A stretch of DNA of 64,000 nt from an uncultured virus (IMG/VR IMGVR_UViG_3300042446_001322) (IMGVR_UViG_3300042446_001322); one strand, 5' to 3'. Positions 30,660-58,138 are shown, counted from the stretch's first letter. The notes: generated by a model not told the origin, from the letters alone. Program-made: numbers and translations.

Positions 30660-30830
30660 ATGGCTAACGCAAAAGTAAATGTACAACAAAGAGCAACAGG
30701 CAGAGTAGGTGGAACCAATTCTCCAGTGTATGCATTAAAAACTCCAGGTGGAAAAACTCCAGGAAAAGTAAACAAACCACAGCCATCTCCTAAGATGAAA
30801 ATGGGAGGTACCAAAGGTAAAAAGTGTTAA
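30660..30830 (+). CDS. Small basic protein, 56 aa, KMKMGG motif (not in ORF track)
   Basis: MANAKVNVQQRATGRVGG...PKMKMGGTKGKKC*. Confidence 0.65.
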   Translation: MANAKVNVQQRATGRVGGTNSPVYALKTPGGKTPGKVNKPQPSPKMKMGGTKGKKC

Positions 30831-30850
30831 TAATATTAAAATAAATTATT

Positions 30851-31480
30851 ATGGCAAAGATAGGATGTGCTAAATGTGGAGGCACTAAAAAAATGGCATT
30901 AGGAGGATCTGCAGTAAAAAAAGCTCCAGTACAATTATATGGTATACCTCAAGAAAATATGGGGACTTCTTCTCAAATGGGATTTGGTAGAAAAGGCGGA
31001 TCAGTAAATATAAATAAAAAAACAAATGACATGACTAAAGTTAAAAAAATGCAAGTAGGTGGAATGAGTACAACTCCTAAAATGAGTACAACTCCTAAAA
31101 AACCTGTAGTTAAAAAAACAGTTGTACAAAAGAAAACAACAGTTCCAAGAAAAATAATTGACAGTTATATTCCAATGGGTGGTCCTGATAGATTACTGAA
31201 AAAACCAACAATGGCTAAGAAAGGTGGAACAGTAAATAAAATGCAAGCTGGTGGAACAAGTTCTACAAAAACAAATATGTTTGGTAAAACTAAAAATGTT
31301 TCTGAAAAAGAAGCTATGGAAAAAGTTACAAAATATGCTAATAAACCTGGCAGTACAGTAAAAAGTACAACAAATGGTACTGAAAAAACATATGTAACAA
31401 AACCTAGAGCAAATTCTAACAGATCTGTAACAACTACATTTAAAAAAATGGGTGGAGTTACTAAATCTAAAAAGAAATAG
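30851..31480 (+). CDS. Lys-rich protein with repeated MxxGG motifs
   Basis: KMALGG, GRKGG, KMQVGG, MAKKGG, KMQAGG, KKMGG. Confidence 0.7.
   Translation: MAKIGCAKCGGTKKMALGGSAVKKAPVQLYGIPQENMGTSSQMGFGRKGGSVNINKKTNDMTKVKKMQVGGMSTTPKMSTTPKKPVVKKTVVQKKTTVPRKIIDSYIPMGGPDRLLKKPTMAKKGGTVNKMQAGGTSSTKTNMFGKTKNVSEKEAMEKVTKYANKPGSTVKSTTNGTEKTYVTKPRANSNRSVTTTFKKMGGVTKSKKK
31063..31098 (+). repeat. Perfect 18-nt tandem duplication
   Basis: aatgagtacaactcctaa x2 (MSTTPK x2). Confidence 0.9.
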
Positions 31481-31482
31481 TC

Positions 31483-31860
31483 ATGGCTAATACTAATAGA
31501 GCAGTTAAGACTTCTTGCAAAAATACTAAAGTAAGAACTGCTTCTGGTGCATGTGCTCCTGAAAGAAAACCTATGATGAAATCTGGTGGAACTAGTCCAT
31601 TTGGTATTTTATCTATTATAGCGGGTATAGATAATAATCCTAAACCAACTGCTGCTGATAGAATTTCTGGAGCTAAAATGAAAAATAAAAAAATGGCCAA
31701 AGGAGGTACTGCTCATCCAGGTTTTAAATCAGTACAATCTAGTATTGCTGCTAAACAAGGAATTAGTAAACAAGCTGCTGGAGCTATATTAGCTGCATCA
31801 ACTAGAAAAGCTAGTGCTAAAGCTAAAGCTGCAAATCCTAGACTTAAAAAAGTAAAATAA
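31483..31860 (+). CDS. Basic protein with MKSGG/MAKGG motifs
   Basis: C-terminal HPGFKSVQ...AGAILAASTRKAS...NPRLKKVK module. Confidence 0.7.
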   Translation: MANTNRAVKTSCKNTKVRTASGACAPERKPMMKSGGTSPFGILSIIAGIDNNPKPTAADRISGAKMKNKKMAKGGTAHPGFKSVQSSIAAKQGISKQAAGAILAASTRKASAKAKAANPRLKKVK

Positions 31861-31865
31861 TTGTT

Positions 31866-32204
31866 ATGCCAAAAGATGCATGTTATTCTAAAGTAAAAGC
31901 ACAGTATGCTGTGTTTCCTTCAGCAAGAGCTTCTCAAGCTATTGCTAAATGTAGGAAAGGTTCTGGTGTTGTTAAAAAAACAAAAGCTGGGACAGACTTA
32001 AAAAGATGGCAAGCAGAAAAGTGGCAAGATACAAAATCAGGAAAAGCTTGTGGGGCTGGTGGTAAAAATGAATACTGCCGGCCAACCAAGAAAGTATCTA
32101 AGGATACACCTAAAACTAAGTATGAACTTACTCCTTCTAAACTAGCTGCAAAGAAAGCTGAAAAGTCTAAAGTAGGTATGGGTAGAAGAGTTAAAAATGT
32201 ATAG
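31866..32204 (+). CDS. Basic Cys-containing protein (DUF5872-like)
   Basis: LKRWQAEKWQD...CG...YCRP...TPKT. Confidence 0.6.
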   Translation: MPKDACYSKVKAQYAVFPSARASQAIAKCRKGSGVVKKTKAGTDLKRWQAEKWQDTKSGKACGAGGKNEYCRPTKKVSKDTPKTKYELTPSKLAAKKAEKSKVGMGRRVKNV

Positions 32205-32206
32205 TC

Positions 32207-32716
32207 ATGGCAAATAAAGTTAAACTTACTATAGGTACTGAAAAGCATGTAGTATATAAAAAGACTACTAAAAGAGGTGAAGGTAAAGTTGGTGATATTA
32301 TGGTGAATCATACAAATAAAAATAAAGGTTCATATGATACTATTAGCTTAACTAGAACTGCTAAAGCTAAAACTGTTGCTCAAGGTGTTAAAGCTGAAAA
32401 GGATTGGCACAAAAAGAATGATAAAATGCCCAAAATGAAAAGTGGAGGTAGTACTCCTGCTTGGACACGTAAGGAAGGTAAAAATCAAACAGGTGGTTTA
32501 AATGCTAAAGGAGTAGCAAGTTATAGAGCTGCTAATCCTGGAAGTAAACTTAAGATGGCTGTTACTACTAAACCTTCTAAGTTAGATCCTGATAGTAAAG
32601 ATGCTAAGAGACGCAAGAGCTTCTGTAGTAGAATGTCAGGGATGCCAGGTCCTGCTAAAAAACCAAATGGAGAACCAACAAGAAAAACTCTTGCTTTGAG
32701 AAAGTGGAATTGTTAA
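32207..32716 (+). CDS. Basic protein with C-terminal DUF6321-like domain
   Basis: After KMKSGG: AWTRKEGKN..GGLNAKG...RRKSFCSRM...LRKWNC. Confidence 0.65.
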   Translation: MANKVKLTIGTEKHVVYKKTTKRGEGKVGDIMVNHTNKNKGSYDTISLTRTAKAKTVAQGVKAEKDWHKKNDKMPKMKSGGSTPAWTRKEGKNQTGGLNAKGVASYRAANPGSKLKMAVTTKPSKLDPDSKDAKRRKSFCSRMSGMPGPAKKPNGEPTRKTLALRKWNC

Positions 32717-32728
32717 AATTTATATATT

Positions 32729-33406
32729 ATGAAAAAAATGCAAACAGGTGGTGCAAAAAAAACAGTTAAAAAAGTTGATGATAAAACATCATTTAAAGCT
32801 GGATTTAAAACTACTCCAATACCTCAAGCTTATAAAGCAGTTGGTAAAATGGCAAAGAATGTTGATGATGCAATTGAAAAAAGATATCCTAATTATACAG
32901 GTCCAACATCTTTTTATGCTGGACTTAAATCTGGAGCAAAAACTTTACTTGGATATAAAAAAGGTGGAGTAACTAAAGAACATCCAATAACTGCATTTAG
33001 AAAAGCTAATGAAGCTAGAGATGTAGTAGTTAAATCTTCTATGAAAAAAATGCAGACTGGCGGTGTTAAAATAAAAGAATCTAGTAAAGATGCTTATTAT
33101 AAAAATAATACTCAAAATTTTAAAGAATATAAAGCTACAACAGATGGTACTGTAAAAAGTACAAGAAAAACTTTTCCTGATGTTTCATCAAAACCTGCTA
33201 TGGAAACTACACAATCTATGGATACTACAGGATATGCAAAAGGTAAAAAGTCTTTTAAGTTAACAAACTCATCTGTAGATTTAATTGATAAAAAAGTATA
33301 TGGTGCTAAACCAAAAGTAACTGTAAAAAATATATCTAGAAATGATGTTAAAAAAGTTATTGGTGGTATGAAAAGCAATATTGGTAATGCTTCTAAAAAA
33401 AAATAA
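32729..33406 (+). CDS. Lys-rich protein with KMQTGG repeats
   Basis: MKKMQTGG twice, YKKGG once. Confidence 0.7.
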   Translation: MKKMQTGGAKKTVKKVDDKTSFKAGFKTTPIPQAYKAVGKMAKNVDDAIEKRYPNYTGPTSFYAGLKSGAKTLLGYKKGGVTKEHPITAFRKANEARDVVVKSSMKKMQTGGVKIKESSKDAYYKNNTQNFKEYKATTDGTVKSTRKTFPDVSSKPAMETTQSMDTTGYAKGKKSFKLTNSSVDLIDKKVYGAKPKVTVKNISRNDVKKVIGGMKSNIGNASKKK

Positions 33407-33409
33407 CAG

Positions 33410-34108
33410 ATGCTTAATAGTACTATAGTTATAAAAGTAAAACAACGTCTTAACAAATTGGACAGCCAAGACTATGACAACATTGAATGTTGGCAAGTAG
33501 TAGAGTCTTTTAATAAGGCCCAAGTTGAATGGATCAGAAGACAACTTCATGGTATCAATATTGTAAAAGAAGGTGATGAGCAGTCTACTAGAAGAATAGA
33601 TGACTTACAAATATTACTAGATACTATTAGCGTACCATTTGTTAAATCTGATATATCTTCTTATTCTGATTTACCTCCTGATTATTTACAATGGAAACGT
33701 GTAGATATTCAAGCTAAAAAAGGATGTTGTGATGATAGAAGAATGTCAGTGTATCTTGCAGAAGAGGGCAACTTAAATCAATTACTATTTGATAATGCTA
33801 AAAAACCTAGTTTTGAGTGGGCTGAAACATTTGCAACTTTAAAAAATAATAGAGTCAATGTGTATACAAATAATGATTTTGATATTAGTTCTGGTAGTCT
33901 TACATATTATAGACAACCAATAAAAATCCAGATACAAGGATGTATAGATCCTTACACTAGTGTAGAAACTATTACAAATGTAAATTGTGAATTTAAAGAT
34001 GATATAGTTGAATTACTAATTGATGAAGCAGTTAGTATACTTGCTGGTGATATTGAATCAGGTAATCAATTCTCTAGAGGAACAGAAACAGCAGAAAGAA
34101 ACAATTAA
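33410..34108 (+). CDS. Putative tail ring/head-tail connector protein
   Basis: FNKAQ, RRIDDLQIL, LPPDY, YYRQP, LIDEAV pattern of podovirus-type adaptors; synteny. Confidence 0.65.
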   Translation: MLNSTIVIKVKQRLNKLDSQDYDNIECWQVVESFNKAQVEWIRRQLHGINIVKEGDEQSTRRIDDLQILLDTISVPFVKSDISSYSDLPPDYLQWKRVDIQAKKGCCDDRRMSVYLAEEGNLNQLLFDNAKKPSFEWAETFATLKNNRVNVYTNNDFDISSGSLTYYRQPIKIQIQGCIDPYTSVETITNVNCEFKDDIVELLIDEAVSILAGDIESGNQFSRGTETAERNN

Positions 34109-34119
34109 TATTTATTATA

Positions 34120-34617
34120 ATGGAACAAAACAGAATGTTAAAAAGAAATCCTGATACTACAAAAATCAGTAGACCTCAATTTAAAATTGAAGAAGTTAAA
34201 CCTCAACCTACTAAAAATGCAAGTGTAGGTGGTAGTTCACTAGATACAATGGTTTCAGCATGTGCTACTGAATTAATGAATGCAAGAACAAGTATTCACA
34301 AGTTGCATTTAAAAGTAACAGGAGAAGGATCATTTGCTGCACATAAAGCATTAAATGAATTATATGATGCTTTACCTGATCATGCAGATACTCTTATAGA
34401 AGGATATCAAGGAGCAGCTGAAAAAATTCTTTCTTATAGTGAAGTGGCTCCAAGAACTCTTGATACTGTAGCAGACGGTGTAAATTATCTTAGAGATATT
34501 TATGCAATGATAAATAAATTACAAGGTATGTTACCTTATTCAGAAATAGTAAATAACTTAGATCTTGTTAAAGATAGTATTAACTCAACCAAATATAAAT
34601 TATTATTCTTGAAATAA
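34120..34617 (+). CDS. Ferritin/Dps-like protein
   Basis: HKLHLKVTG..SFAAHKALNELYD...DTLIEGYQG...KYKL. Confidence 0.8.
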   Translation: MEQNRMLKRNPDTTKISRPQFKIEEVKPQPTKNASVGGSSLDTMVSACATELMNARTSIHKLHLKVTGEGSFAAHKALNELYDALPDHADTLIEGYQGAAEKILSYSEVAPRTLDTVADGVNYLRDIYAMINKLQGMLPYSEIVNNLDLVKDSINSTKYKLLFLK

Positions 34618-34680
34618 TTTTGTAAATAGAAATTATTTTATTATATTATATATATATTTATTAATTAAAATTAAATTATT

Positions 34681-35997: not shown

Positions 35998-36022
35998 GTA
36001 GTACAAAATTATATTACTAACA

Positions 36023-42292: not shown

Positions 42293-42883
42293 ATGGAAAG
42301 TAAAATATTTAAGGGACCAGATGTAAAAGGTAAAAGATTTAGACAAGATGTATATCATGTATTAAATAGACAATTCTATAAAGCATTTAAAGAAAAGTAT
42401 CCTAAATATAAGGATGTAAGTACTAAGGACCTATATAAAATATGTACAACATTCCATAACTTATTTTTTGAAACAGTAATTGAAACTAGGGATGGTGTAA
42501 AGTTACCAGAAAATTTAGGTAACATATTTATTGGTACATGTCAAACAAGTAAGTTTAGAAGAAACATTGATTTTGGCAAGTCAACAAAATATGGAGTAAT
42601 AGTAACAAATACAAATTGGGATACAGATGGCAAGCTTGCTAAAATCTTTTATACTAATAATGCTACTAAGTATACTTTTAGTAATAGAGAGTGTTGGGCT
42701 TTTGCAGGATGTAGAAACTTTAAAAGAAGTGTAGCTAAAACATATTCAGAAAATTGGCCTATGTATATACAGGTTGATCCAATGAAAAAAATACGTAAAA
42801 TGTTTACTAAGTCTAGGCAAAAGGATTACGTTAAAAGTATTGAAAAAGAAAAGTTAAAAACATATAATGAATTTGATATATGA
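42293..42883 (+). CDS. HU/IHF-like protein (crAss-like tail-region gene)
   Basis: Basic; DGVKLPENLGNIFI; synteny before the ring genes. Confidence 0.55.
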   Translation: MESKIFKGPDVKGKRFRQDVYHVLNRQFYKAFKEKYPKYKDVSTKDLYKICTTFHNLFFETVIETRDGVKLPENLGNIFIGTCQTSKFRRNIDFGKSTKYGVIVTNTNWDTDGKLAKIFYTNNATKYTFSNRECWAFAGCRNFKRSVAKTYSENWPMYIQVDPMKKIRKMFTKSRQKDYVKSIEKEKLKTYNEFDI

Positions 42884-44579: not shown

Positions 44580-47500
44580 ATGGCAAAGAAAAATATACAA
44601 GATACAGGTCAAAATAAAACAAATACCTTTATAAAGGGATTAAATAAAGATTCAGATCCTACATTTGTAAGTGAGGGCATGTGGACTCATGCGCGTAATG
44701 CAGTTAACAATACATTAGAAGGTAATGTTGGTACATTATCAAATGAAACATCAAATGTATTTTGTGCAGAAGCAGGAGCAACTTTAGGTGGTAAAAAATA
44801 TATTATAGGTGCAATACATTTATATAGTGATAAATGGATTCTTTTTACTGTAGCACATCCATCATCAGGAGTTGGTGCAGCTACTGGACATGAAATAGGA
44901 TTATTTGAAGAAGATACCTGTAGATATAGAATTATTGTACAGGATACATGTTTAAATTTTGATAAACAATTTTTAATTACTGGTGCATCAAGAGAAAAAG
45001 AAGATTGCTCATGGTCTGTATATTTTGCTGATGGTAATAATCCTGATAGATATTTAAATGTTGGGGATGATGCTTTATGGCCATCTTCTGATTATATATG
45101 GATTGGTAATAATACATATGCAAATGGATCAGGTGTAAATATTCAATGGCCAGGAGTTCAATGGGATCAAGAATGTAAAGATGAAAACGGTATAGTAGTT
45201 CCAGCTCCAGGTGGTTATATTCCTGTAGGATGTATTATATGTAAAGATTTAACAACATTAAATTGTGAAGCCTTAAGACTTGCAAGATTAATGAATACTC
45301 CAACTATTCAAGTTGAACCAGGTGTTGGTGGAGGTGTATTAAGAAATGGATCATACTTTGCAACTCTTGCGTATACTATTAAAGGTCAAAGAGTTACAGA
45401 TTATTTTTCACCAAGTAATACTCAACCAATTTGGAATGTTAATGATGTACAAGGATCTATTGATATATTAATTACAGCTGACTCAACACATTTTGATGAA
45501 TTTGAATTAGTAGTAGTACAAATAATTAATCAAGGAGCAGTAGCAAAAAGAATAGGTTTATATTCTACAAATACTTCTGTAGTACATTTAGATCAGATTA
45601 AAGATGATTTAATAACTATTCCAATTGAATTTCTTCCTTTAAGAACTCCGGTGTATGAAACATCAGATCAAATTACTGAGGTTAATACATACTTATTAAG
45701 AATTGCACCAAGATCTAAATTTGATTTTAACTATCAACCTTTAGCTAATCAAATAAGATCACAATGGGTATCAGTAGAGTATCCAGCAGATTATTATGTA
45801 AAAGGAGGAAGTAATACAAGTTACTTAAGAGATGAAGTATATGCTTTCTTTATCAGATGGGTGTATAGTACTGGAGATAAATCTTCTTCATATCATATTC
45901 CTGGACGTGCTCCAACACAATACGGAGCAACCTTTGAAACAGATCCTGCAACAGGTATAGATGTTTTAGATACAACTGATAGAGTATTTGAAGTATATAA
46001 TACAGCAACTTTAGGTGGCTTGCCTCCTGTAACAACATTACCTGATGGAGGCATAATTAAAGCTCAAGGTAGAATGGGATACTGGGAATCAACAGAAAAA
46101 TATCCAGATAATAGAGATGATATATGGAATGCATCATCACAATGTTGGTCAGGTACAACTGATCCTCAATTTGATTTATGTGCCAAACCAATAAGACATC
46201 ATAAATTTCCTGATAACATTACTCAAGGTTCACTTTTAACTAATCATTATTCTCAAGGTGGTAATGGTATTAGATTAATGGGTGTAAACTTTACTAATAT
46301 ATTTTTACCAAAAGATAATGATGGTAATGATATACCAGGAATAGTAGGTTATGAAATACTAAGAGGATCTAGAGAAGGTAATAGAAGCATTATTGCTAAA
46401 GGTATGGTAAATAACATGCGCACCTATGACATTAAAGGTAACAGTGCTGGAAACAGAATTGGTTTATATCCTAATTATCCTTTTAATACTATTACACCAC
46501 TTTCAAGTTTATTAGGTGGAAATGTTTCAGGTGTTAATGATCCATATATTAGATTGACAAATAGCAATGATCAAATTGTAGATCAAATAATACCAACTAA
46601 TTTAATGACTTTTCATTCACCAGATACTAATTTTAGAAATCCTTATTTATCTGTTACTGAATTAAAAATATATGGTAGTTTAAGAGGTACTTCAATACAG
46701 TATTTTCAAGAACCCAATAATCATCCAAAATTTAAACTGTTAGCTGATATAGCAGTAGCTGCAGGGATATTAGCCGGTGTTATTGAAGTTGCATTACAAC
46801 AAGGAGGTAAATGGACAATTAATGAAAATACAAGTACTCCAGGTACTGGTGCTGGAGATATTGTTGGAGCTGTATCACGTACAGCTGGAGGTATTTTTCA
46901 ACCAATAAAAAGTGCTTATGATGCTACAGTTTCAGCTTATTTGACATCAGGTGGATTTTTACTTGATTCAGTTAATCCAATTGGTGATCCAATTTATCAA
47001 CTTTTTAATATCCCATATCAAGCTGCTGCTGGAGTTGCTGCTGCTGCTGGAGCAATTAGTATTAATGGTAAAAGTTATACAAAAGATATACCTAAATATA
47101 AATACGCAGGTCCTTTTGGTATTGCTAATTTTATTCAACAATCATTTTTCTATTTTTCAGAAGGAGCAAATACAACAATTAGATTAATATATGCATTAAT
47201 ACCATATAGACAATATGCATTACAAGCTATTGCAGAAGGTTATTATAGTAGTTTTGCTGCACCAATTGCAGGTAATAGACAAAGATTTAATATTGAGGAT
47301 AGTTTATATTTAAAAAATAATATTCAAAGTATTAAACCTTTTAGTGGGATTAGTTATATAATTAATAATCTTCAAAGACAGACAACTGTTACTTTAAGAA
47401 CTACTAATAACTTAAATCAAAATTTTGGACCTGATTTTATTACAGATCCTTCTTCTCCTACAGGATTAGCTGATACTTCACTTGTAACATTAGGTACTGC

Positions 47501-49868
47501 TATACAAGCAGGTATAGGTTTACCAGTTAATATGACATCAGGTAAAACTAATGAATTTAATCTTAATATTGCAAGTCATTATGTTGGTATAAAAGTTAGA
47601 TTAAAAAATCAATATGGTCAACTTGATTCTCTTAAACAAATACCTATTACACCAGCAGAACAAAAATTAAATTATAATAATCAAAACATACCAGTAGTAT
47701 TTAGTAGTTTCTGGTGTACTATTAGTACTCCTTATGGTACTGCAGCTAAATTAGTTACTTTAGAAGTAATAACTCAAACCCCAGTATTATTTGGAGGAGA
47801 TGTTTATGTAAATAGATATACTGAAAAGAATAACATGTTCTTTTTCTATGATTGGTTATATGGTCAACCTGATGGTTATGAATATAATTATATTTTAAAA
47901 CATATGATTGCTGAACCAAGGTTCTGGGCTAATAGTGCAGAATATGATGTAGGTGATCTTACACCAGGTTCAATTGCAGATTTACTTGATCCACCTCCTG
48001 GAACAGGACTTTTACCAACAGGTTTTTATAATTTAGATTACTATGTAGGTGACTTACGTAAATATGATTATAATCAAGATCAACCAACAGGTTCTCCAGA
48101 TAAATATCCTGGAATCTTTGGTGCTAAAGATTCATATTTTTATTTAGCTAATTCTTCAGTAAGAGATTTCTTTGTTGAGTCAGATGTAATAGTAGATTTT
48201 AGACAACCTGGTTTAGAAACTTGGCAAAAAAATTATGATGTAAATACATATACCAATTTACCAGAAATGTTTAATATGGACCCTAATACAATAACACTGG
48301 GTAACTATTATGCATATGACTATTCATTAAGTATATCTAAAGTATTTACACAATATTTTTCACAAGGTAATCTTCAATCAAGATATTATGATCCTAATGT
48401 ATCTCAGTTATGTTATACTTACTATCCTGATAGAGTAGTATATTCATTACCACAACAAAATGAATCATCAAAAGATTCATGGTTTGTATATTTAGTAAAT
48501 AACTATAAAGAATTTAAAAATAGAATTACTAGTATAAAACCTTATGCTAAGACTGGTATGTTTATTACATTCCAAAATGCTAGTCCATTAATGTATCAAG
48601 GTGTAGATACTCTTACAACTGAGTTGGGTACCAAACTTACTATAGGTGATGGTGGTTTATTTGCTAACCCTCCTCAGAATGTTACTATATCAGATGTACA
48701 GTATGAGTATGGTTCTTCTCAAAATAAATTTGGTGTTATTGGAACTCCTGCTGGCATGTATTATATGTCTCAAAATCAAGGAAGAGTATTTTCATTTACT
48801 CAAAATTTAACAGAAATATCTCAAGCAGGTATGAAATGGTGGTTTAGTTTATTCTTACCATATAAACTTACTGAAGATTTTCCAGAATATCCACATACAG
48901 ATAATCCTGTAGCAGGTATTGGTACTCAAGCAGTATATGATAATTATAACGGTGTTATATATTTCTGTAAAAAAGATTATAAACTAAGACCTGAATATAT
49001 AGGTAAAGTAGTATATGTTTCTTATGGTGATTATTTCTTAGTAAATGGTTCAGCAAAAGTAGAATTAGGTAATCCACTTATATTTGAAAATGCTTCATGG
49101 ACCACAAGTTTTGACCCTAAAAATCAACATTGGATATCTTTCCATGACTGGCATCCAGATTTTGTATTACCAGCAAGACAATATTTTGCAACAACTAAAG
49201 GAGGTAAGGTATGGAAACATAATGCAGTATGTAACAGTTACTGTAATTTCTATGGTGTTCAACATCCATTTGAAGTTGAAATACCCCTTATTACGGGACA
49301 AACAGTTACCACTCTAAAATCTATAGAGTATATACTTGAATGCTATAAGAATCATTCTAATAACTGTGTAGATCAATTCCATGTGTTAGATTATAATTTT
49401 GATAAAGCAGTAATATTTAATTCAGAACAAGTATCAGGATACTTAAATCTTAATATTTTTCCTAAGAATAATATTACTCTAGCTAATACATATCCAATTA
49501 TTAATCCTACATCTATAGATATATTATTCTCTAAAGAAGAAAATAAATATAGATTTAATCAATTCTGGGATATAACAAGAAATAGAGGTGAGTTTCCAGT
49601 TGGATCTAATTATCCTCCAACAGGACCATTAGTTCCTGGTACTACAGTATTAGCAGGAAGTTATGATCAAGAATCAATATGGGTAACACAGTCTAATGGA
49701 TATATAAAAACATTAACTCCAACAAATTTGAATTATAATAAAACAGAGCTACAAAGAAAAAAATTCAGAAATTATTTAAATTTTTTATATTTAAGCAGAA
49801 CTGATTCAAAAGATGTTAATATGATTATTAAATTGAGTAATAGTAAAAATCAAATATCACTAAGATAA
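44580..49868 (+). CDS. Tail muzzle/stabilisation protein
   Basis: 1762 aa; FIKGLNKD...ARN N-terminus, beta-propeller-like regions, WISFHDW; crAss-like synteny. Confidence 0.75.
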   Translation: MAKKNIQDTGQNKTNTFIKGLNKDSDPTFVSEGMWTHARNAVNNTLEGNVGTLSNETSNVFCAEAGATLGGKKYIIGAIHLYSDKWILFTVAHPSSGVGAATGHEIGLFEEDTCRYRIIVQDTCLNFDKQFLITGASREKEDCSWSVYFADGNNPDRYLNVGDDALWPSSDYIWIGNNTYANGSGVNIQWPGVQWDQECKDENGIVVPAPGGYIPVGCIICKDLTTLNCEALRLARLMNTPTIQVEPGVGGGVLRNGSYFATLAYTIKGQRVTDYFSPSNTQPIWNVNDVQGSIDILITADSTHFDEFELVVVQIINQGAVAKRIGLYSTNTSVVHLDQIKDDLITIPIEFLPLRTPVYETSDQITEVNTYLLRIAPRSKFDFNYQPLANQIRSQWVSVEYPADYYVKGGSNTSYLRDEVYAFFIRWVYSTGDKSSSYHIPGRAPTQYGATFETDPATGIDVLDTTDRVFEVYNTATLGGLPPVTTLPDGGIIKAQGRMGYWESTEKYPDNRDDIWNASSQCWSGTTDPQFDLCAKPIRHHKFPDNITQGSLLTNHYSQGGNGIRLMGVNFTNIFLPKDNDGNDIPGIVGYEILRGSREGNRSIIAKGMVNNMRTYDIKGNSAGNRIGLYPNYPFNTITPLSSLLGGNVSGVNDPYIRLTNSNDQIVDQIIPTNLMTFHSPDTNFRNPYLSVTELKIYGSLRGTSIQYFQEPNNHPKFKLLADIAVAAGILAGVIEVALQQGGKWTINENTSTPGTGAGDIVGAVSRTAGGIFQPIKSAYDATVSAYLTSGGFLLDSVNPIGDPIYQLFNIPYQAAAGVAAAAGAISINGKSYTKDIPKYKYAGPFGIANFIQQSFFYFSEGANTTIRLIYALIPYRQYALQAIAEGYYSSFAAPIAGNRQRFNIEDSLYLKNNIQSIKPFSGISYIINNLQRQTTVTLRTTNNLNQNFGPDFITDPSSPTGLADTSLVTLGTAIQAGIGLPVNMTSGKTNEFNLNIASHYVGIKVRLKNQYGQLDSLKQIPITPAEQKLNYNNQNIPVVFSSFWCTISTPYGTAAKLVTLEVITQTPVLFGGDVYVNRYTEKNNMFFFYDWLYGQPDGYEYNYILKHMIAEPRFWANSAEYDVGDLTPGSIADLLDPPPGTGLLPTGFYNLDYYVGDLRKYDYNQDQPTGSPDKYPGIFGAKDSYFYLANSSVRDFFVESDVIVDFRQPGLETWQKNYDVNTYTNLPEMFNMDPNTITLGNYYAYDYSLSISKVFTQYFSQGNLQSRYYDPNVSQLCYTYYPDRVVYSLPQQNESSKDSWFVYLVNNYKEFKNRITSIKPYAKTGMFITFQNASPLMYQGVDTLTTELGTKLTIGDGGLFANPPQNVTISDVQYEYGSSQNKFGVIGTPAGMYYMSQNQGRVFSFTQNLTEISQAGMKWWFSLFLPYKLTEDFPEYPHTDNPVAGIGTQAVYDNYNGVIYFCKKDYKLRPEYIGKVVYVSYGDYFLVNGSAKVELGNPLIFENASWTTSFDPKNQHWISFHDWHPDFVLPARQYFATTKGGKVWKHNAVCNSYCNFYGVQHPFEVEIPLITGQTVTTLKSIEYILECYKNHSNNCVDQFHVLDYNFDKAVIFNSEQVSGYLNLNIFPKNNITLANTYPIINPTSIDILFSKEENKYRFNQFWDITRNRGEFPVGSNYPPTGPLVPGTTVLAGSYDQESIWVTQSNGYIKTLTPTNLNYNKTELQRKKFRNYLNFLYLSRTDSKDVNMIIKLSNSKNQISLR

Positions 49869-52573
49869 TGGGATTTAATAAAAAAGTATTATCTAAAGCT
49901 GTATCAGAATTAGATAAAGCAAAAGCACCAGCAAAGCCAAGAGATATAACTGTTGATCCTATGGGTTATTGGAATCCTGCTAATCAAGGTCAACCAGTAA
50001 GAATCCCTGGTAATGATATTACTATGCAAGGTGTACCTTATCCTGTATGGGCTCAACCTAATGTAGGTCCTGGATCAATGATGCAGCCTAATCAAGATTA
50101 TAACTTTCCTGGTGCATCTTATGTAGATGAAACACCTATGGCAAAAAAGGGTGGTACTCTTCAAAGCAAAAAGTATTCTAAGAGTATGTCTGCTACTAAT
50201 AAACTCTTTGCTAAGAATAAGTTATTCCAAAATAAAAAGAGTAAGATATTTGATCCTAATGCTGAGTTTAAAACAGGAGGTTCTAAACTTGGTACTATTA
50301 ATCTTAATCCTAATCCATTAAGTCACTATGAATTAAATTATGGTTTTAATTTACCTACTGAAGAAGATGGTGGAGAAGCTGATTATGAAGACCAAGATCT
50401 TACTGATGAAGAGATACAAGCATATAGAGATGCAGGATATGAAATAGAAGAATTACCAGAAGCACAAGTAGGTGGTCCACAAAATACTGCAGGTCCAAGA
50501 GCAGAAGAAATATCTACTAATGTAGATGCTATGAATGCAATGATGAAAGCTAGAATGGCTACAGATGCTGCATTTGGAAATTCATCAGCTCAAAGAATGA
50601 TTTCTCCTAATCCTAAAACTTATGATTTTGGGAATGGAAATTTAGGTACACATTTTATGGCTTCCATGGGAAATCAAGCAGTACCATTGTTACAAGATAA
50701 AGGTGGTAATGAATTAGAATATAATGAAAACCCTCCTCCAAGTAATGAAGATATGAATTTCAGAACTCCTGAAGAAGCTCAATATTTTGCGGAACACTAT
50801 AAAGAAGTGGCACCAATGATGAAAGGATTTAAGAAGGGTGGTTATGTACAACATGAACTTGCTAAAGCACAAAAAGGTGAAGAAAAACAAGATCCTGATA
50901 TTTCTTTAGAAGATTATTTAAAACTATATGAAAACTCTTTAGCTTTAGAAAAAGGCATTACAAGTATGCCTAATTATAAATTAGAAAATACTGATACTAA
51001 TGTAGATGATTATTTAAAACAATTAGAAACAGCAAGAAATAATTGGCTTGAATATGACACAGTTCATAATAAAAATAGAAAAGAAATACAAGACCGTTTA
51101 AATGATAAAAAATCTCCACCAACAGAAAAAAATAGGATAGCATTTGAAAAGATATTAAAAGAAAAATTACAACCTAGAGAAATTCAGGATTATTATACTG
51201 TTGTATCACCAAATAATTTTTATCAAAGAGATATCACAAATGCTTTTGTAAATAAAGAGTTTACACCTGCATATTATGATTCTAGAATAAAACCTTCTTC
51301 AAGAAATACTTATTATGGCTACCGTCCAGGACGAGATGGTACTGAGGAAACATTTGATAAAATTGAATTATATAAATATGATCCAGTTGAAGTTAAAAAA
51401 CAAGCTTTATTAAAATATACTGATTCTGAAGAAGCTTTTCAAAATGCTTTAAATAAATCTACAGGCAATGATATAACTCCATTAAAACGTATACAATATG
51501 CACAATCTGTGCAACCCAAACAAGAAATAATACCTGCTGTACCATATGTAAAACTTAAACATTATAGAGATTGGAATCCTACTGGTTATCATGGTGAAAA
51601 TATAGAAATGCCAGAAGGATATACTCAACAAGATGTTGAAAAAGAAATAAGAAAAAGGCAATCAGCAGAATATGATAAAAGAGCATTAGAGTATCAACAA
51701 CAAGAAAAAGCTAAAATTACTAAAAGATTAAAACCAGTAGGTCTTACTGAAAATTTTAAAGAAGGTGGAACACTAGTTAAAGCACAGAATGGTAAAACAG
51801 TAAAACCATTATTAATATCAGATCCTAAAAAGTATGCTTATAGAAAAACTGCATATGATGACAGTTTAAAAATATATAATATTGATAAAAATGTAATAGA
51901 TTTATCTAAAAAAAATGCAATTGGTAATTTACCAGATGATGTATATTTTAATAATGCAAAATTAATTATGAATTATCAGGATCAAATTAATAAAATAAAA
52001 AAAAATTCAAAAGTAAAACATAATATGGTAAAACTCCCTGGTAATCAAATTAAAGGGGATATTGCAAAAGGTTATAAAAAACCTGTAGAACCAGTAAACT
52101 ATATACAATCATTACAACCAATAGATAAAAAACCTGTAAAGCATATACCTCCCAAAAATGTTGTTATAAATAAACCTGCTCCTGCTGTACAAGAAAACAA
52201 TATAGTAGGTACTTTAGTTCCAAGAATCATACAACAATTTGTAACACCAAATACTGAGTTACAACCTACTAATTTTCAAACAATACCTAAGAAACCACAA
52301 GGTCCAAGATACGGTACATTAGCTGGTGATGAGAATTTAAACTTACCTGAGAACTACACTCAACAACAAAGAGAAGCAGCTAGAAAAAAAAGAGATGCTG
52401 ATGAGTTTACAAGAAAAACATTAGAGTATCAAGCTAAACAACGTGGTACAAAGGCACCTATAGCACAGATGTTTCAAAAAGGTGGTGATGTTGAATCTTG
52501 GGAAGATGAACTAGATGATGATGAAATTAAAGCCTTAGAAGCAGCAGGATATACTATAGAAAGAATTAAATAA
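49868..52573 (+). CDS. Modular cargo-like protein punctuated by xxGG motifs
   Basis: IPGNDITM...FPGASYVDETPMAKKGG domain; internal duplications. Confidence 0.6.
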   Translation: MGFNKKVLSKAVSELDKAKAPAKPRDITVDPMGYWNPANQGQPVRIPGNDITMQGVPYPVWAQPNVGPGSMMQPNQDYNFPGASYVDETPMAKKGGTLQSKKYSKSMSATNKLFAKNKLFQNKKSKIFDPNAEFKTGGSKLGTINLNPNPLSHYELNYGFNLPTEEDGGEADYEDQDLTDEEIQAYRDAGYEIEELPEAQVGGPQNTAGPRAEEISTNVDAMNAMMKARMATDAAFGNSSAQRMISPNPKTYDFGNGNLGTHFMASMGNQAVPLLQDKGGNELEYNENPPPSNEDMNFRTPEEAQYFAEHYKEVAPMMKGFKKGGYVQHELAKAQKGEEKQDPDISLEDYLKLYENSLALEKGITSMPNYKLENTDTNVDDYLKQLETARNNWLEYDTVHNKNRKEIQDRLNDKKSPPTEKNRIAFEKILKEKLQPREIQDYYTVVSPNNFYQRDITNAFVNKEFTPAYYDSRIKPSSRNTYYGYRPGRDGTEETFDKIELYKYDPVEVKKQALLKYTDSEEAFQNALNKSTGNDITPLKRIQYAQSVQPKQEIIPAVPYVKLKHYRDWNPTGYHGENIEMPEGYTQQDVEKEIRKRQSAEYDKRALEYQQQEKAKITKRLKPVGLTENFKEGGTLVKAQNGKTVKPLLISDPKKYAYRKTAYDDSLKIYNIDKNVIDLSKKNAIGNLPDDVYFNNAKLIMNYQDQINKIKKNSKVKHNMVKLPGNQIKGDIAKGYKKPVEPVNYIQSLQPIDKKPVKHIPPKNVVINKPAPAVQENNIVGTLVPRIIQQFVTPNTELQPTNFQTIPKKPQGPRYGTLAGDENLNLPENYTQQQREAARKKRDADEFTRKTLEYQAKQRGTKAPIAQMFQKGGDVESWEDELDDDEIKALEAAGYTIERIK

Positions 52574-52615
52574 ACTTTTAATGTTTATTCAGTAAACCAA
52601 AAATTATTATATTTA
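52571..52615 (+). promoter_or_regulatory. Operator-like TAAAC-N7-GTTTA (52571-52587) and TATATTTA box (52608-52615)
   Basis: taaacttttaatgttta. Confidence 0.55.
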
Positions 52616-52633
52616 ATATATATTACATGTTAT

Positions 52634-55156
52634 ATGAAAAAGAGAGTAAGAATATATAAAAAAGGAGGTCAGTCAAATGCACCTACTCAAGAACAAATAT
52701 ATAAACATATTGCTGATAGAATGTCTGCAGAAGATTATGACGGTGATGCTGATACTATTTTACAAGAATTAACACAAGTTGGTATAGATCCTCAGACTGC
52801 TGATAGTTACATTACTGAAGTAGGTGATTATCTTGAACAAAATAATTCTGCTCAATCTGCTGAACAAGAACAACTTAGTGCAGAAGAAGCACAAGCACAG
52901 GCTGAAGAAGAACAAGCAACAATTGAAGCACAAAATGCAGCAGAAGAAGAAGCAAGAAAAGCTCAATTATATGCAATGTATAATACTGATACAGAAGAAA
53001 CTACTCAAGATGATAATGCAGATGAAGAAATCATTATGAGACAAGGTGGTTCTAAACCAAGTAAAAGAAGTTTTATTAATCAATATACTAAACTTGCTAA
53101 AAGACAACAAGGTGGAAACACACCTTCTCCAGGAGCAGATGATGTACTTGGTGGTAGAGAAGAACATGTAAGTAATTTCTTTAAAGGTATAGGTGAATCA
53201 GTTACTTCAGCACAACAAAAACAAGCAGCTGAAGAACAATATAATGCTATATACGGTAATCCACAAGTTGGTGCATATGCACAAGATGGTGGTATACAGC
53301 AAGAACAAATAGATACCGAAAGCCCGTTAGATCATTGGAGTAAACAAGGTGCTGCTACAAGACATATATTTTCTGATAATATGTATACTCAAAATGATGT
53401 TGCAGCATTAGAACAATATGGAGGTAATACAGGTCAAGGTCTATATAAATTTATAGGAGGAGGTGATAATGAATCAGCAGATGAACAATATCAAGATTCT
53501 GATTTAGATTATCAAAGATATGCTAAACGTGGCGGAACTTTAAATAAATATCAAGATAAAGGAGAAGTTAAACCTAATCTTTATAATCCTACCACAGGAG
53601 TTTTATATACACCTGAGGAACTTGCTGCTAACAAAACATTAGCAGATAAAGAACTAGCAGATAAAACTGCAACTCCTACAGATACTGAAGATTATAAAAA
53701 AAAGTATAATGAATTAATTAATCAAAATACTACTGATGCTCAAAAACAGCAACAAATGATGCAACAGTATATGATGCAACAGTACATGCAACAAATGGGT
53801 AATCAAGGTATGTTTAGATCTCCTATTATTAGTAGAGGTGAACAATATAATAAAGCTGTTGGTTCTCCATACTATACTCAATCAGGTGAAAGATATACAG
53901 GACCAGATCTTGCCGGTAGATTACCATCAAGTGTAAATGTAGATAAATATGGTATATTTGGTAGACCTAAAAAAATGACATATAACTATGGTGATAATGA
54001 AAATTCATCTTCTACTGTTCCTCCATTAATTAAAATGCCAGAAAATGGAGAGTCAGAAGATGCACCATATAGAGGTAAAACTTTTGGTGAAAGATTAGGT
54101 AGAGGAATGGTGAATACAAAAATACCAGGAATACAACAACTTGGAGCTAAACTAATACCCTCTAATTTTGATTATGATGGTTCTAATAACCTTACTGAAT
54201 CTTCAAGAAATAGTCCATTAGTTACTAGTAATGAACCTTATTATCCGCCTATGAGCCCAAGAGCTCAAAGAAGAGAAAATAGAGATGATAGACAGTTAAA
54301 TAGATTTCTTGGTAATAATAATTTTACAAATTCAAATCCTGAATCTGAATTTATTAATACACCAGAAAATCAAAAACAAATTGATCAAGCAAAAAAAATT
54401 GAAGCATTAGCAGCTGGTAGTACAAATTCTAATTTATCAGATGATCAAAATGCATATCAAGATTTTTTAATTAGACATCAAGGACCAGCATATAAAGAAT
54501 ATGGTGGACCAATTGATTATACTCAATATGCTTATGGAGGAGATATATCTGTACCAGAATTATATAGAGCTCAAGTAGGTACTCAAGTAGCAGTTGATCC
54601 TAATGCTAATAATATGAGTTTTGCAAATCTTCAAGGATTTTTTGCTGGAACAGGTGCTGTAGATGCAGAGGGTAATACAGTTGATGCAACACTTCCTGAA
54701 AGTATGCAAGTTGATAATATTACAATTGATCCTAATCAACCAAATAGAGCACCAATAACTGATACTCCAGAAGGTGTTTCTCAAAAGTTTAGAAATAAAC
54801 AAGCTTGGGATATTGATAAAGCAGGAATTGGAGATTTAAGTTTATTAGCAGCTAATGCTTTTGCAAATACTGCTGATGAAGTTAGAGCTAATAGACAAGA
54901 GAATCAAATGTTAGAAAATATAACATCTGCTGAAACTAATTTTGGTATTAATAATACTTATGATCAAGGAGACTATGATCCTAACTCAGGTTTATTTAGG
55001 CCAAATAAAATGGGATTCAATGGTGTTTCAAAATATGGTGGAGGAGTTTATGCTATGGGTGGAAACACTGAAGATGAAAATGAAGATACTCAATACATGA
55101 CTCAAGAAGAAATAGATGACTTCATTGCTAATGGAGGTGAATTAGAATACTTATAA
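52634..55156 (+). CDS. Acidic Q/N-rich cargo-like protein with many xxGG motifs
   Basis: Low-complexity; about 12 motifs. Confidence 0.6.
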   Translation: MKKRVRIYKKGGQSNAPTQEQIYKHIADRMSAEDYDGDADTILQELTQVGIDPQTADSYITEVGDYLEQNNSAQSAEQEQLSAEEAQAQAEEEQATIEAQNAAEEEARKAQLYAMYNTDTEETTQDDNADEEIIMRQGGSKPSKRSFINQYTKLAKRQQGGNTPSPGADDVLGGREEHVSNFFKGIGESVTSAQQKQAAEEQYNAIYGNPQVGAYAQDGGIQQEQIDTESPLDHWSKQGAATRHIFSDNMYTQNDVAALEQYGGNTGQGLYKFIGGGDNESADEQYQDSDLDYQRYAKRGGTLNKYQDKGEVKPNLYNPTTGVLYTPEELAANKTLADKELADKTATPTDTEDYKKKYNELINQNTTDAQKQQQMMQQYMMQQYMQQMGNQGMFRSPIISRGEQYNKAVGSPYYTQSGERYTGPDLAGRLPSSVNVDKYGIFGRPKKMTYNYGDNENSSSTVPPLIKMPENGESEDAPYRGKTFGERLGRGMVNTKIPGIQQLGAKLIPSNFDYDGSNNLTESSRNSPLVTSNEPYYPPMSPRAQRRENRDDRQLNRFLGNNNFTNSNPESEFINTPENQKQIDQAKKIEALAAGSTNSNLSDDQNAYQDFLIRHQGPAYKEYGGPIDYTQYAYGGDISVPELYRAQVGTQVAVDPNANNMSFANLQGFFAGTGAVDAEGNTVDATLPESMQVDNITIDPNQPNRAPITDTPEGVSQKFRNKQAWDIDKAGIGDLSLLAANAFANTADEVRANRQENQMLENITSAETNFGINNTYDQGDYDPNSGLFRPNKMGFNGVSKYGGGVYAMGGNTEDENEDTQYMTQEEIDDFIANGGELEYL

Positions 55157-55165
55157 TTTTATATT

Positions 55166-58138
55166 ATGTACTTTAAAGTAAAAATAACTAAGGGATTACC
55201 ACAAGCAAAATCAGGAGGTTTTACAGGTAACAATTTAAATAAACAAGTAATTAGTTTTGGTGGTGCTGATATGAATGCTGCATCAAGACATCTTGAAAAT
55301 ACTAGGTATCTAAAACAAGTACCAAGAGATGAAGCTAATCTAGAAGCTGAAAAAGGTGAGTCTGCATTTGGTGATATCAATGGAGATGGGTTTCCTGAAC
55401 ATATGCTTATTGGTGGAAAAAGACATAGTAATGGGGGAACTCCTTTAAATTTGCCTGATGGTACATTTATCTTTAGTGATACTGCATCTATGAAAATTAA
55501 AGATCCAAAAATACTTGCTAAATTTGGTAAAAAAACTGGTTCTTTTACTCCTGCTGAATTAGCTAAACCATATGATATTAATAAGTATAGAAAGATACTA
55601 GAAGATCCTAACTCAGATAAAGTAGATAAAAAGTCTGCTGAGTTAATGATTAAAAATATTAATATGAAACTTGGTGCATTAGCTCTTGCACAAGAAAGTA
55701 AAAAAGGATTCCCACAAGGTATACCTGAAGTAGCTAAACCATATATGGAAGCAATGGGTATAAAAGAAGAAGACTTGATGCCACAAAAACCACAAGCAGA
55801 AGCACAGGTTAATAGTCAAGCAATGCAAAACCCATATGAAAATCAAGGTATGGGTATGCAATCTCCTGAAGAAGAATCTGTAGAACAAGTTCAAGGTATG
55901 CAAAATTCTCAAGAAGAGTCTATGGAATCTCCAATGGGAAGATATGGCTTTCAAATGGGTAGAAGATTGAGAGTTGCTCAAGAAGGAATGCAACAAGGTC
56001 AACCTTCTCCTGAAGAAATGGCAATGATGCAACAACAAGGAGCACCACAACAACAAGGTGGGGCTGATCCTCTTGCACAAATGGTACAACAAGTTCAACA
56101 AATGTTACAACAAGGTGTACAACCTGCAGATGTAGTAATGCAATTGTTACAAAAACAAGTTCCACCTCAAGCAATAATGCAAATACTTGTACAAGTAGGT
56201 ATGCCTCAAGAAGAAGCACAGGCTACTATTCAACAAGTAATGGAACAAGGACAACAAAATCCTCAAGAGGAAATGATGGAAGCTCCTATGGCTCAATATG
56301 GAATGAGTATGGGTGGTTATGACATGCCGTTTCATGATACACAATATAGAAATGGTGGTTCAATAAATAGATTTCAAGGAGGTGGTTCAACATATAGTAT
56401 TCCAAAAGATGCACTTGTAATTGATAGAAGTAAATATAAAACTGATGCAGAATATGAAATAGGAAGAAATTTAGAATTTGCTAAAGCAGGTACTAAACCA
56501 GTTTATATATTATATCCAGATGGAAAATATAAAAAAGTAACACAAAAAACTAAAGCAAAAGATCCATATACAGGTACTGATTTAGGACCTACTTTTAATA
56601 ACTCAGCTGATGCAGCAATACAGTTTAGAGAAATGGGTAAATCCATTAATACTCCTGAATTTACAAATTTACTTGCAGATTATACCCTTAAAGCTATTAA
56701 GGATGAGTCCAAATATATAGGTAAATCTGGTAAACGTAGTAAAGCATTTGATGATTTTAGTAAAGAAAACTTTACTCCTGAGCAAATTAGAAATGCTTTT
56801 ATGCAACATCAAAAAAGAAATATTGCATTACAAGCAAATGGTATACAAGCAAGATATTTTGAAGATGCACCAACTGGTAGATTATTAACTCCTGAACAAA
56901 TTGTTTCTAAAAAAATAATGGATAAAGGTAAACCAGTAACATTAGCTCAAGCAAAAGAAGTTGTTAAAAAATATAAAGAAAATGACATTACTGATTTAAA
57001 TAAAGCATTTATTAAAGTTGGGATCCCATTGGAAAATACAGCATTAGAACAAGCTACTTTTCAAGGATTTACTGATGCATTAAAAAATAAAGCAAATTTA
57101 ACACCTGAACAACAAAAAACATTAGAAAACTGGGGAGAATATGAATCAGGAGCAGCAGATGAAACCGGTCAATTAAATAATCAAATATCTCCTATTGATA
57201 GAGTATATACTAATACTACAGGTGAACAGTTATCTGAATATAATTTACCAACTGAATATGATTATACTGAAGATGATGTAGAACCAATAGACCGTACTGT
57301 TGATACAACAGAAGAAGAAACAATATATCCTCCAACAATGCCAGCTAAACCATGGGCACAAGATAAATTAAATAGACTTAATGCTGGATTAGATTATTTT
57401 AGTGCTGAAAAATATTTACCATGGGCAGCTAGTTATAATCCTGAAATGTTAGATCCTACTTTCTATGATCCTACTAGAGAATTAGCAGCACAATCTGAAC
57501 AAGCAAATATAACTAATCAAGCATTAGGACAATTTATGGGTGCACAAGATTTATCTTCTAGAGCAGCATCTATTCAAGGTCAAGGAGCTAAACAAGCAGC
57601 AGATACATTAGGAAGATATAATAATCTTAATGTAGGTGTAGCAAATCAATTTGCTGGTAATAATGCACAAATAAGAAATGAAGCTCAAAGATATAATCAA
57701 GCACAAAATAAACAGTTATATGATCAAAATGTAATTGCTAATCAACAATTTGATAATAGTAAACGTGCACTAAGACATAACTTAGGAGATGCAGAAAATA
57801 CATTACTTACTAATATGTATAAAACTGATGCATTAAATCAACAGTTTCCACAATATGCAATTGATCCTAGTACAGGTGGTAAAATGTATTTTACAAGACC
57901 AAAAGCTCCAAAACCTACTACATATCAAGATGATTTAGATTATGCTGATAAAATACAAAATTCAAATTTAGATCCTAAATTAAAAGAAATATTATTAACT
58001 CAGCATTTAAAAAGTTCACGTGGTAATGTTGCTAACACAGATGCAGAATCAGTACTTGCACAATATCAAAAGAAAGGTGGTACTACTCAAATGGCATATG
58101 TAATGGGGTCTAATGTTTTTCCTTTTATGTTTACATAA
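55166..58138 (+). CDS. Cargo-like virion protein
   Basis: ANLEAEKGE...GKRHSNGG...FIFSD domain, Q/M-rich helical block, N/Q-rich coiled C-terminus. Confidence 0.6.
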   Translation: MYFKVKITKGLPQAKSGGFTGNNLNKQVISFGGADMNAASRHLENTRYLKQVPRDEANLEAEKGESAFGDINGDGFPEHMLIGGKRHSNGGTPLNLPDGTFIFSDTASMKIKDPKILAKFGKKTGSFTPAELAKPYDINKYRKILEDPNSDKVDKKSAELMIKNINMKLGALALAQESKKGFPQGIPEVAKPYMEAMGIKEEDLMPQKPQAEAQVNSQAMQNPYENQGMGMQSPEEESVEQVQGMQNSQEESMESPMGRYGFQMGRRLRVAQEGMQQGQPSPEEMAMMQQQGAPQQQGGADPLAQMVQQVQQMLQQGVQPADVVMQLLQKQVPPQAIMQILVQVGMPQEEAQATIQQVMEQGQQNPQEEMMEAPMAQYGMSMGGYDMPFHDTQYRNGGSINRFQGGGSTYSIPKDALVIDRSKYKTDAEYEIGRNLEFAKAGTKPVYILYPDGKYKKVTQKTKAKDPYTGTDLGPTFNNSADAAIQFREMGKSINTPEFTNLLADYTLKAIKDESKYIGKSGKRSKAFDDFSKENFTPEQIRNAFMQHQKRNIALQANGIQARYFEDAPTGRLLTPEQIVSKKIMDKGKPVTLAQAKEVVKKYKENDITDLNKAFIKVGIPLENTALEQATFQGFTDALKNKANLTPEQQKTLENWGEYESGAADETGQLNNQISPIDRVYTNTTGEQLSEYNLPTEYDYTEDDVEPIDRTVDTTEEETIYPPTMPAKPWAQDKLNRLNAGLDYFSAEKYLPWAASYNPEMLDPTFYDPTRELAAQSEQANITNQALGQFMGAQDLSSRAASIQGQGAKQAADTLGRYNNLNVGVANQFAGNNAQIRNEAQRYNQAQNKQLYDQNVIANQQFDNSKRALRHNLGDAENTLLTNMYKTDALNQQFPQYAIDPSTGGKMYFTRPKAPKPTTYQDDLDYADKIQNSNLDPKLKEILLTQHLKSSRGNVANTDAESVLAQYQKKGGTTQMAYVMGSNVFPFMFT

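Follow-up and report, generated by a model that had tools for sequence, protein, structure and literature searches.

A clade-wide Gly-Gly junction motif in the post-muzzle and small basic proteins of a distant crAss-like phage

RESULTS AND DISCUSSION

Two blocks of the genome carry a Gly-Gly motif

We investigated the first 64,000 nucleotides (the window) of the 118,305-bp record of an uncultured virus (IMG/VR IMGVR_UViG_3300042446_001322), in which a short motif ending in Gly-Gly recurs in two blocks of genes, at 30660–33406 and 49868–58138. CheckV gives the record a completeness of 100%. Pfam and PHROG family scans place the phage as a distant crAss-like virus, and its TerL is only ~24% identical to the TerL of deposited crAss-like phages. 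All genes between 1 and 64000 lie on the plus strand, and the G+C content is ~31%. The motif, [MFY]-[KQA]-x-G-G, is real, is kept at the protein level, and is found across the clade as a junction tag: it marks where modules meet in three proteins encoded after the muzzle gene, and it recurs in small basic proteins encoded after the capsid gene.

The first block is a cassette of small genes anchored by the major capsid protein gene (27890–29506; Pfam Crass_capsid, E 4.6e-32). It opens with a 56-amino-acid (aa) basic protein (30660–30830) that ends ...PKMKMGGTKGKKC and has one strict copy of the motif, KMKMGG. A 209-aa basic protein follows (30851–31480; K+R 22%; no Pfam or PHROG family match) with CAKCGG, KMALGG, KMQVGG, MAKKGG, KMQAGG, and FKKMGG, and then a 125-aa basic protein (31483–31860) with MMKSGG and KMAKGG. 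The 112-aa DUF5872 protein (31866–32204; Pfam PF19197, E 9.3e-13) has no [MFYA]xxGG. The cassette is completed by a 169-aa protein (32207–32716) in which KMKSGG precedes a DUF6321 domain (residues 91–167; Pfam PF19846, E 9.7e-22), and by a 225-aa basic protein (32729–33406) with MKKMQTGG at its N-terminus, then YKKGG and KMQTGG.

The second block is anchored by the muzzle protein (44580–49868; Pfam crAss_MUZ, E 2e-31), which itself has zero strict motifs. The muzzle gene is followed by genes for proteins of 901, 840, and 990 aa, here called cargo-1, cargo-2, and cargo-3, and then for proteins of 995, 1,896, and 3,305 aa. Cargo-1 (49868–52573) is a mosaic, polyvalent-type protein with a conserved N-terminus, junctions that end in GG, and an acidic C-terminal tag (...FQKGGDVESWEDELDDDEIKALEAAGYTIERIK). 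Cargo-2 (52634–55156) is mostly disordered by prediction and has 15 GG positions, a basic head, MKKRVRIYKKGG, and an acidic tail, ...FIANGGELEYL. Cargo-3 (55166–58138) has a disordered basic head (residues 1–43, with LPQAKSGG and ISFGG) and a folded domain at residues 45–200.

We defined a strict form of the motif, [MFY][AKQR]xGG, and a loose form, [MFYA]xxGG, and compared their counts with 300 within-protein residue shuffles. The nine proteins flagged by eye (3,627 aa) contain 20 strict copies where 0.69 are expected and 30 loose copies where 4.2 are expected, and none of the 300 shuffles reached either count; GG alone occurs 54 times against 24 expected. The other 51 proteins of the window (16,799 aa) have 1 strict copy (1.9 expected), 23 loose copies (18.4 expected), and 121 GG (106 expected). 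The carriers are eight of the nine, namely the three cargo proteins and five small basic proteins, with the DUF5872 protein as the exception. The motif is ~30 times commoner than chance in the flagged proteins, and the enrichment is real and confined to these eight proteins. The complete genome beyond 60 kb adds only one further strict copy, within the 3,305-aa protein, and this whole-genome count removes the worry that a target set chosen by eye had biased the result.

A preliminary description of this DNA had listed these motif strings gene by gene, put the loose motif at about 30 copies in eight proteins, and judged by eye that TerL, portal, and the protein encoded from 58204 were not enriched. 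All of the strings are present where it placed them, including KMKMGG in the 56-aa open reading frame (ORF), and its count survives the shuffle control it had proposed. GG occurs once in TerL, four times in portal, and once in the 58204 protein, and none of the three has the motif.

The codons for GG are a mix of GGT, GGA, and GGC in the proportions of the background. Codon variation of this kind argues for a constraint on the peptide and not on the DNA, and it rules out a repeat or recombination signal at the DNA level. We found no description of the motif in the literature searched, supplements aside.

The motif in the small basic proteins of relatives

A search of IMG/VR with the capsid protein identified hundreds of contigs at 90–100% identity. 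In 45 relatives with a capsid protein at least 90% identical, the interval between the 336-aa and 232-aa genes (29597–34108 in the window) is a hypervariable cassette of 1.5–5 kb with 4–11 small lysine-rich ORFs. The 302 distinct cassette proteins of these relatives contain 280 strict motifs against 11.2 expected, a count reached in 0 of 100 shuffles. The 56-aa ORF at 30660–30830 lies below the default ORF cut-off and is kept as an ORF of 56–66 aa in 10 of the 45 cassettes.

The sequence logo of the relatives' cassettes reads K-M-[KQ]-K-G-G-[ST]-[VT]-K, with preferences on both sides of GG. The commonest spacing between tandem copies is 8–12 aa, often in pairs, and a protein has up to seven. 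In the logos of both the window and the relatives, the bulky residue stands at −3 from the first Gly, which would be P5 of a cut after GG. GG is mostly followed by a small residue (S, T, or A), and at several sites by Pro.

The preliminary description had also placed copies near protein termini. A slight excess is present: a C-terminal tail of at most 8 aa follows the motif in 23 cases against 15.5 by chance, and the first motif lies within 20 aa of the N-terminus in 49 cases against 33.6. We looked for strong enrichment near termini and found only this weak excess. No protein ends 0–3 aa past its last GG, while 35 end 4–8 aa past the last motif (23 small and 12 post-muzzle). No copy begins within the first three residues, so that at least three residues always precede the motif and at least four follow.

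Likewise, the DUF6321-like domain had been said to start right after KMKSGG. The domain does follow, with GG at residues 80–81, and the Pfam match begins 10 residues past KMKSGG. The motif is not a property of DUF6321, since 5 copies occur, where 9.9 are expected, in 120 longer DUF6321 homologues of other viruses.

Two other features of the small basic proteins were seen. Many of them open with a Cys pair (CAKCGG, CKTGCGK; 30851–30890 and relatives L018, L025, L027, and L069), and the first cassette protein (30660–30830) ends ...GKKC; such cysteines could serve as a zinc knuckle or a disulfide anchor. A second recurring element, distinct from bulky-K-x-GG, is G[RK]VGG[TI][SN]xAPKxAxPKAK (L046, L050, L062, L063, L068, and 30660–30830).

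Modules of the post-muzzle proteins are joined at the motif

We compared 80 loci anchored on the C-terminus of the muzzle protein. The first three post-muzzle ORFs carry the motif, and the muzzle protein and the fourth ORF are essentially without it. Cargo-1 varies in length from 307 to 2,789 aa across these loci; its N-terminus and acidic C-terminus are constant, and its interior differs from phage to phage. Matches to ART-PolyVal, SET, Phage_lysozyme, Amidase_2, or Amidase_6 were found in 17 of the 45 cargo-1 proteins of relatives that were scanned (examples are L094:10900–18423, L154:10927–15267, L103, L112, and L140). Cargo-1 of L094 also carries an HExxH stretch (HELTH). The window's own cargo-1 has no Pfam domain, and in a tblastn search of deposited phages it gave one short match, to Leptolyngbya phage Lbo-JY46.

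We mapped where homology breaks off among 46 distinct cargo-1 proteins. Of 375 unique, supported breakpoints, 125 fall no more than 5 aa from a motif, compared to 5.6% for random positions. High-scoring segment pairs most often end exactly on the second Gly, with 107 ends at offset 0, and most often start on the bulky residue. FDPNAxYxxGG and YVDExPxMxxGG are typical joints, after which the sequence is unrelated. Modules are exchanged among relatives precisely at the second Gly, which answers the test set by the preliminary description, of whether homologous phages gain or lose whole segments at the motifs.

The ends of these proteins are built from related elements. The first and second post-muzzle proteins end in G[GYFW]x[IVL][EQK]x[IVLFY] in 49 of 64 distinct cases, and the second and third begin with [KR]V[KR][IVL] in 60 of 67, usually followed by LPxAxxG(G) or KAGG. 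The acidic strand also occurs internally, as in ...YKDGGYIVEELPKAQxG..., and gene boundaries fall between the acidic strand and LPxAQxG, ~7 residues from either GG. At L158:17680–20895 (and also in L160), cargo-2 and cargo-3 are fused into a 1,071-aa protein from which both the acidic tail and the basic head are gone. The internal strand, together with fusions that lack the tags, indicates that natural boundaries lie between two GG-containing half-elements and not at GG↓X. The boundary between cargo-3 and the next protein (58090–58290, and in relatives) has a different conserved pair, with a tail ...KKGGxxxMxYVMGSNVFPFMFT and a head MATYLQGVTDYIPQFQPFQPDLNFY.

Conservation and predicted structure of cargo-2 and cargo-3

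GG is near-invariant in sequence that is otherwise fast-evolving and largely disordered. In an alignment of five cargo-2 orthologues, GG identity is 0.98, compared to 0.72 for all columns and 0.81 for lone Gly. The neighbors of GG vary within their class (YKKGG becomes YKAGG, and IMRQGG becomes ISRYGG), and where the bulky residue is lost, another bulky residue alongside takes its place. The AlphaFold 2 model of cargo-2 has a mean predicted local distance difference test score of 38; at this low confidence, each GG is in a coil segment that separates predicted helices, in many cases abutting the end of one.

The best structural match to cargo-3 residues 45–208 is the portal-bound domain of the crAss001 cargo protein C1, and the match is weak. 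LIGG (83) and SNGG (90) lie within the confidently folded part of the cargo-3 model, in which these GG pairs are predicted to be structural. PDB sequence searches with the cargo-2 alignment (A1) and with cargo-3 gave nothing relevant, and a tblastn search of deposited phages with the cargo-3 head gave no match. Co-folding of the cargo-2 tail (A4, 60 aa) with the cargo-3 head and domain (A2, 210 aa) gave a score of 0.03 (mark, 0.32), which counts neither for nor against binding.

A variant of the motif in crAss001 gp45

In crAss001, the muzzle gene is followed by genes for cargo proteins C1 (gp45) and C2 (gp46), and then for RNA-polymerase-related giants (Bayfield et al. 2023, PMC10172136). The cargo proteins here resemble gp45 in several ways: its gene comes immediately after that of the muzzle, and it is a long protein, disordered in part, with a basic N-terminus. 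That N-terminus is followed by a bulky-x-x-GG-QS element (NIFDTGGQS in crAss001, RIYKKGGQS here), and short islands are also alike (YGGPLEF and FAYGGD in gp45, YGGPIDY and YAYGGD here). These by-eye alignments are leads only. Sequence homology of cargo-3 (990 aa) and cargo-2 (840 aa) to gp45 is not significant, as BLASTP gave no match under E 0.6 and hhalign gave probabilities of 0.15% and 0.5%.

We counted 21 GG positions in gp45. The variant A-[FY]-x-GG, a pattern chosen post hoc, occurs five times against 0.18 expected, and none was found in the other crAss001 proteins examined. Thus, crAss001 has a different variant in gp45 only, whereas here three cargo proteins and five small basic proteins carry the motif. 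Variant tags flank both gp45 segments described as resolved by cryo-EM in the available text of PMC10172136: FSAYGG-PLE stands just before helix 214–245, NAFGG opens domain 425–552, and MFAYGG at 557–563 lies just past it. The same text reports the portal-bound piece, residues 425–552, as one continuous chain, deposited as such, which leaves at least AFGG↓W, TQGG↓D, and NEGG↓S intact in virions. It contains no mention of protease, cleavage, proteolysis, or glycine.

Beyond crAss001, the post-muzzle proteins of Leptolyngbya phage Lbo-JY46 have two strict copies, and none was found in Flavobacterium phage Fpv1. The motif is lineage-specific: strong in this clade, present as a variant in gp45, not enriched in DUF6321 homologues, and absent from Fpv1.

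Search for a protease

We searched the complete genome for proteases that could cut at Gly-Gly. C48 (PF02902) and C5 (PF00770) gave 0 matches at E ≤ 10, where divergent or host enzymes are beyond reach of the search. MPTase-PolyVal (PF18818) also gave 0 matches at E ≤ 10, as did C39 (PF03412) in the phage genome, and Pfam scans of the 125 genome proteins revealed no GG-specific protease family. The peptidase-like genes that these scans did find encode a C92 permuted papain-like peptidase, a DUF2201 metallopeptidase/VWA protein, and a ClpS homologue.

The C92 (YaeF/YiiX-type) peptidase (17173–17664, plus strand) has His33 and Cys128, matches 3KW0 and YiiX, and is encoded in a lysis cassette beside a lysozyme gene (16128–16574). 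Relative G001 has the gene, but relative G002, 99% complete and motif-rich in both cassette and cargo, does not. Its location in the lysis cassette and its absence from G002 rule it out as a general reader of the motif. The DUF2201 metallopeptidase/VWA protein is encoded outside the window on the minus strand, among early genes (89644–91273), and adjoins a small AAA protein; the ClpS-like adaptor gene is also outside the window on the minus strand (104670–104918).

What the motif may do

We favor the reading that the motif is an uncut, multivalent docking or loading tag in virion cargo, with a probability of roughly 0.4. A partner inside the virion would read the motif uncut, and the cargo proteins would be taken up by the procapsid and leave it together with the DNA. 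Loading and ejection are suggested by synteny with the crAss001 cargo, the weak C1-like fold match, and the effector domains of relatives. Repeated copies could give avidity for one conserved receptor, which may be the portal, the capsid interior, a scaffold-like 418-aa protein, or ring proteins, and a standard tag would let new modules recombine in without losing loading. The preliminary description had likewise proposed head-internal polyproteins, cleaved or recruited through the motif. The part that finds support is the cargo interpretation, in that carriers are encoded right behind the muzzle gene, the place of virion cargo genes in crAss-like phages, and effector-type segments are swapped at motifs; no evidence of cleavage was found, and cutting by an adenovirus- or C39-type protease is not upheld, given that no clan CE, C39, or MPTase peptidase is seen in the complete genome and that the bulky residue is at P5 and not P4.

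The features that favor an uncut tag are the two-sided preferences around GG, the tandem copies, the flanks kept at termini, boundaries offset from GG, the crAss001 chain that runs on across GG, and the lack of any conserved protease in our searches. Copies 8–12 aa apart are as expected of a multivalent ligand. Several points weigh against such a tag. No partner for it was found, and the giant RNA-polymerase-like proteins, also expected to be packaged, are without the motif. In cargo-1, a conserved element upstream of GG with similarity that stops at GG could equally be read as the P-side signature of a protease site. The uncut GG pairs of crAss001 belong to a folded domain or its margin, which may set them apart from the sites here. 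Lastly, residence of the small basic proteins in the virion is putative, deduced only from where their genes lie.

A proteolytic maturation site, cut after Gly-Gly by a phage or host enzyme in the head or after ejection, would make the cargo and small proteins polyproteins that are trimmed into modules or DNA-condensing peptides. The one-sided conservation just described and the mostly small residue after GG fit such a site. So do the polyvalent-type character of the cargo family, for which processing into units has been proposed (available text of PMC5512222), and the HExxH stretch in cargo-1 of one relative (L094). Hydrophobic-x-x-G-G also recalls the GG↓X specificity of adenain, ASFV (African swine fever virus) pS273R, Ulp/SENP, and coronavirus PLpro, and the small basic proteins recall adenovirus core precursors. 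We nevertheless consider cleavage less likely than an uncut tag, though a serious rival to it. The searched protease families are missing from a genome rated 100% complete, and the sole papain-like gene sits in the lysis cassette and is lacking in a motif-rich relative. The hydrophobic residue is one position too far from the cut, Pro follows GG at several sites, natural termini never coincide with GG↓X, and gene boundaries keep ~7 residues from either GG. In crAss001, one chain spans three GG pairs, and the available text of PMC10172136 uses no term for proteolysis.

The motif might instead be a passive connector that stops a helix or acts as a flexible hinge and so keeps modules insulated from one another. 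It would have spread by descent, since joins made at a standard linker work, and would have no specific reader. The coil positions of all cargo-2 GG (at the low confidence of the model) and the coincidence of breakpoints with the motif agree with a connector, as does the crAss001 model, in which the cargo proteins must unfold to traverse the tail (available text of PMC10172136). A hinge, however, needs no M/F/Y at −3, K/Q at −2, or V/T at +2, nor would it call for a neighboring bulky residue to replace one that is lost. Not every one of the copies spaced 8–12 aa in the lysine-rich small proteins can cap a helix, the RNA-polymerase-like cargo is threaded as well and lacks the motif, and codon variation speaks against a recombination signal in the DNA; we find this explanation improbable. 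Chance, or the composition of Gly- and Lys-rich sequence, is refuted by the shuffles and deserves almost no weight. G and K are indeed more abundant in the carriers than in the other proteins of the phage, but composition-preserving shuffles never reached the counts, neither in the window nor in the 302 relatives' proteins, and GG is conserved above single Gly.

Comparison to known systems

Adenovirus protease cuts (M/I/L)-X-G-G↓X sites in core precursors, and ASFV pS273R cuts GG↓X. The substrates of both enzymes resemble the carriers here: a bulky residue lies upstream of GG, a small residue comes after it, and sites are numerous in basic proteins whose genes are close to those of the capsid. 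They differ in that the bulky residue here is one position further from GG, and no clan CE protease was detected. Leaders of the C39 double-glycine type are N-terminal, 15–30 aa long, end in GG, and come with a peptidase; here most copies are internal, and PF03412 has no match in the phage.

Polyvalent proteins are mosaic and multidomain, are encoded beside virion genes, and are believed to reach the host along with the DNA (Iyer et al. 2017, PMC5512222). Cargo-1 of relatives is like them in that several unrelated effector or enzymatic domains are joined in a protein encoded next to virion genes. The available text of PMC5512222 proposes an embedded MPTase for processing and does not mention a linker or glycine. 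Here, there is no MPTase in the genome, and cargo-1 of the window is without a Pfam domain.

The T4 capsid targeting sequence and the cargo-loading peptides of encapsulins are short addresses that load unrelated proteins into an HK97-fold shell. Those peptides are single and terminal, whereas the tag here is internal, occurs up to seven times per protein, and marks recombination joints. A conserved head is seen in the second and third post-muzzle proteins, where 60 of the 67 distinct heads have [KR]V[KR][IVL] and then a G-containing tag; a targeting role for it is only putative.

The first minutes of an infection are governed by cargo and ejection proteins. A shared tag predicts which uncharacterized proteins travel in the virion, and it would explain the free exchange of effector modules (ADP-ribosyltransferase, SET, lysins) among near-identical phages. 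A reader, if found, would offer a way to load foreign proteins into phage heads. The crAss001 virion data are worth re-reading, as gp45 has the tag variant beside both resolved segments. In a broader form of the idea, this clade of abundant freshwater-type crAss-like phages would use a five-residue Gly-Gly connector code with a dedicated reader, either a GG-specific protease or a receptor on the capsid or portal, such that any tagged module (toxin-like enzyme, lysin, DNA-condensing peptide) is loaded automatically and delivered with the genome. We hold this to be a somewhat unlikely proposal; if true, the connector code would amount to plug-and-play effector delivery, with the logic of viral LXGG/MXGG polyproteins in a tailed phage.

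Neighboring genes

Between the lysis cassette and the capsid gene, family scans identified TerL (21523–23727) and portal (23734–26484). The left border of the hypervariable cassette is the 336-aa protein (29597–30607), which each of the 42 listed loci has as an ORF of 336–343 aa. It matched no Pfam or PHROG family, and an atlas look-up led to unnamed viral clusters only. The right border is a 232-aa virion structural protein (33410–34108; phrog_29507, E 9.6e-13) that served as the anchor in 45 loci; by position and by analogy to the crAss001 gene order, it is probably a tail-barrel ring protein. CrAss_Ring_2 (42880–43551) and CrAss_Ring_1 (43551–44567) were placed by the same family scans just upstream of the muzzle gene. 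Near the start of the window, a DUF3310 protein is encoded at 1098–1535, and a YadA_head repeat protein is found among fiber-like genes at 13505–14743.

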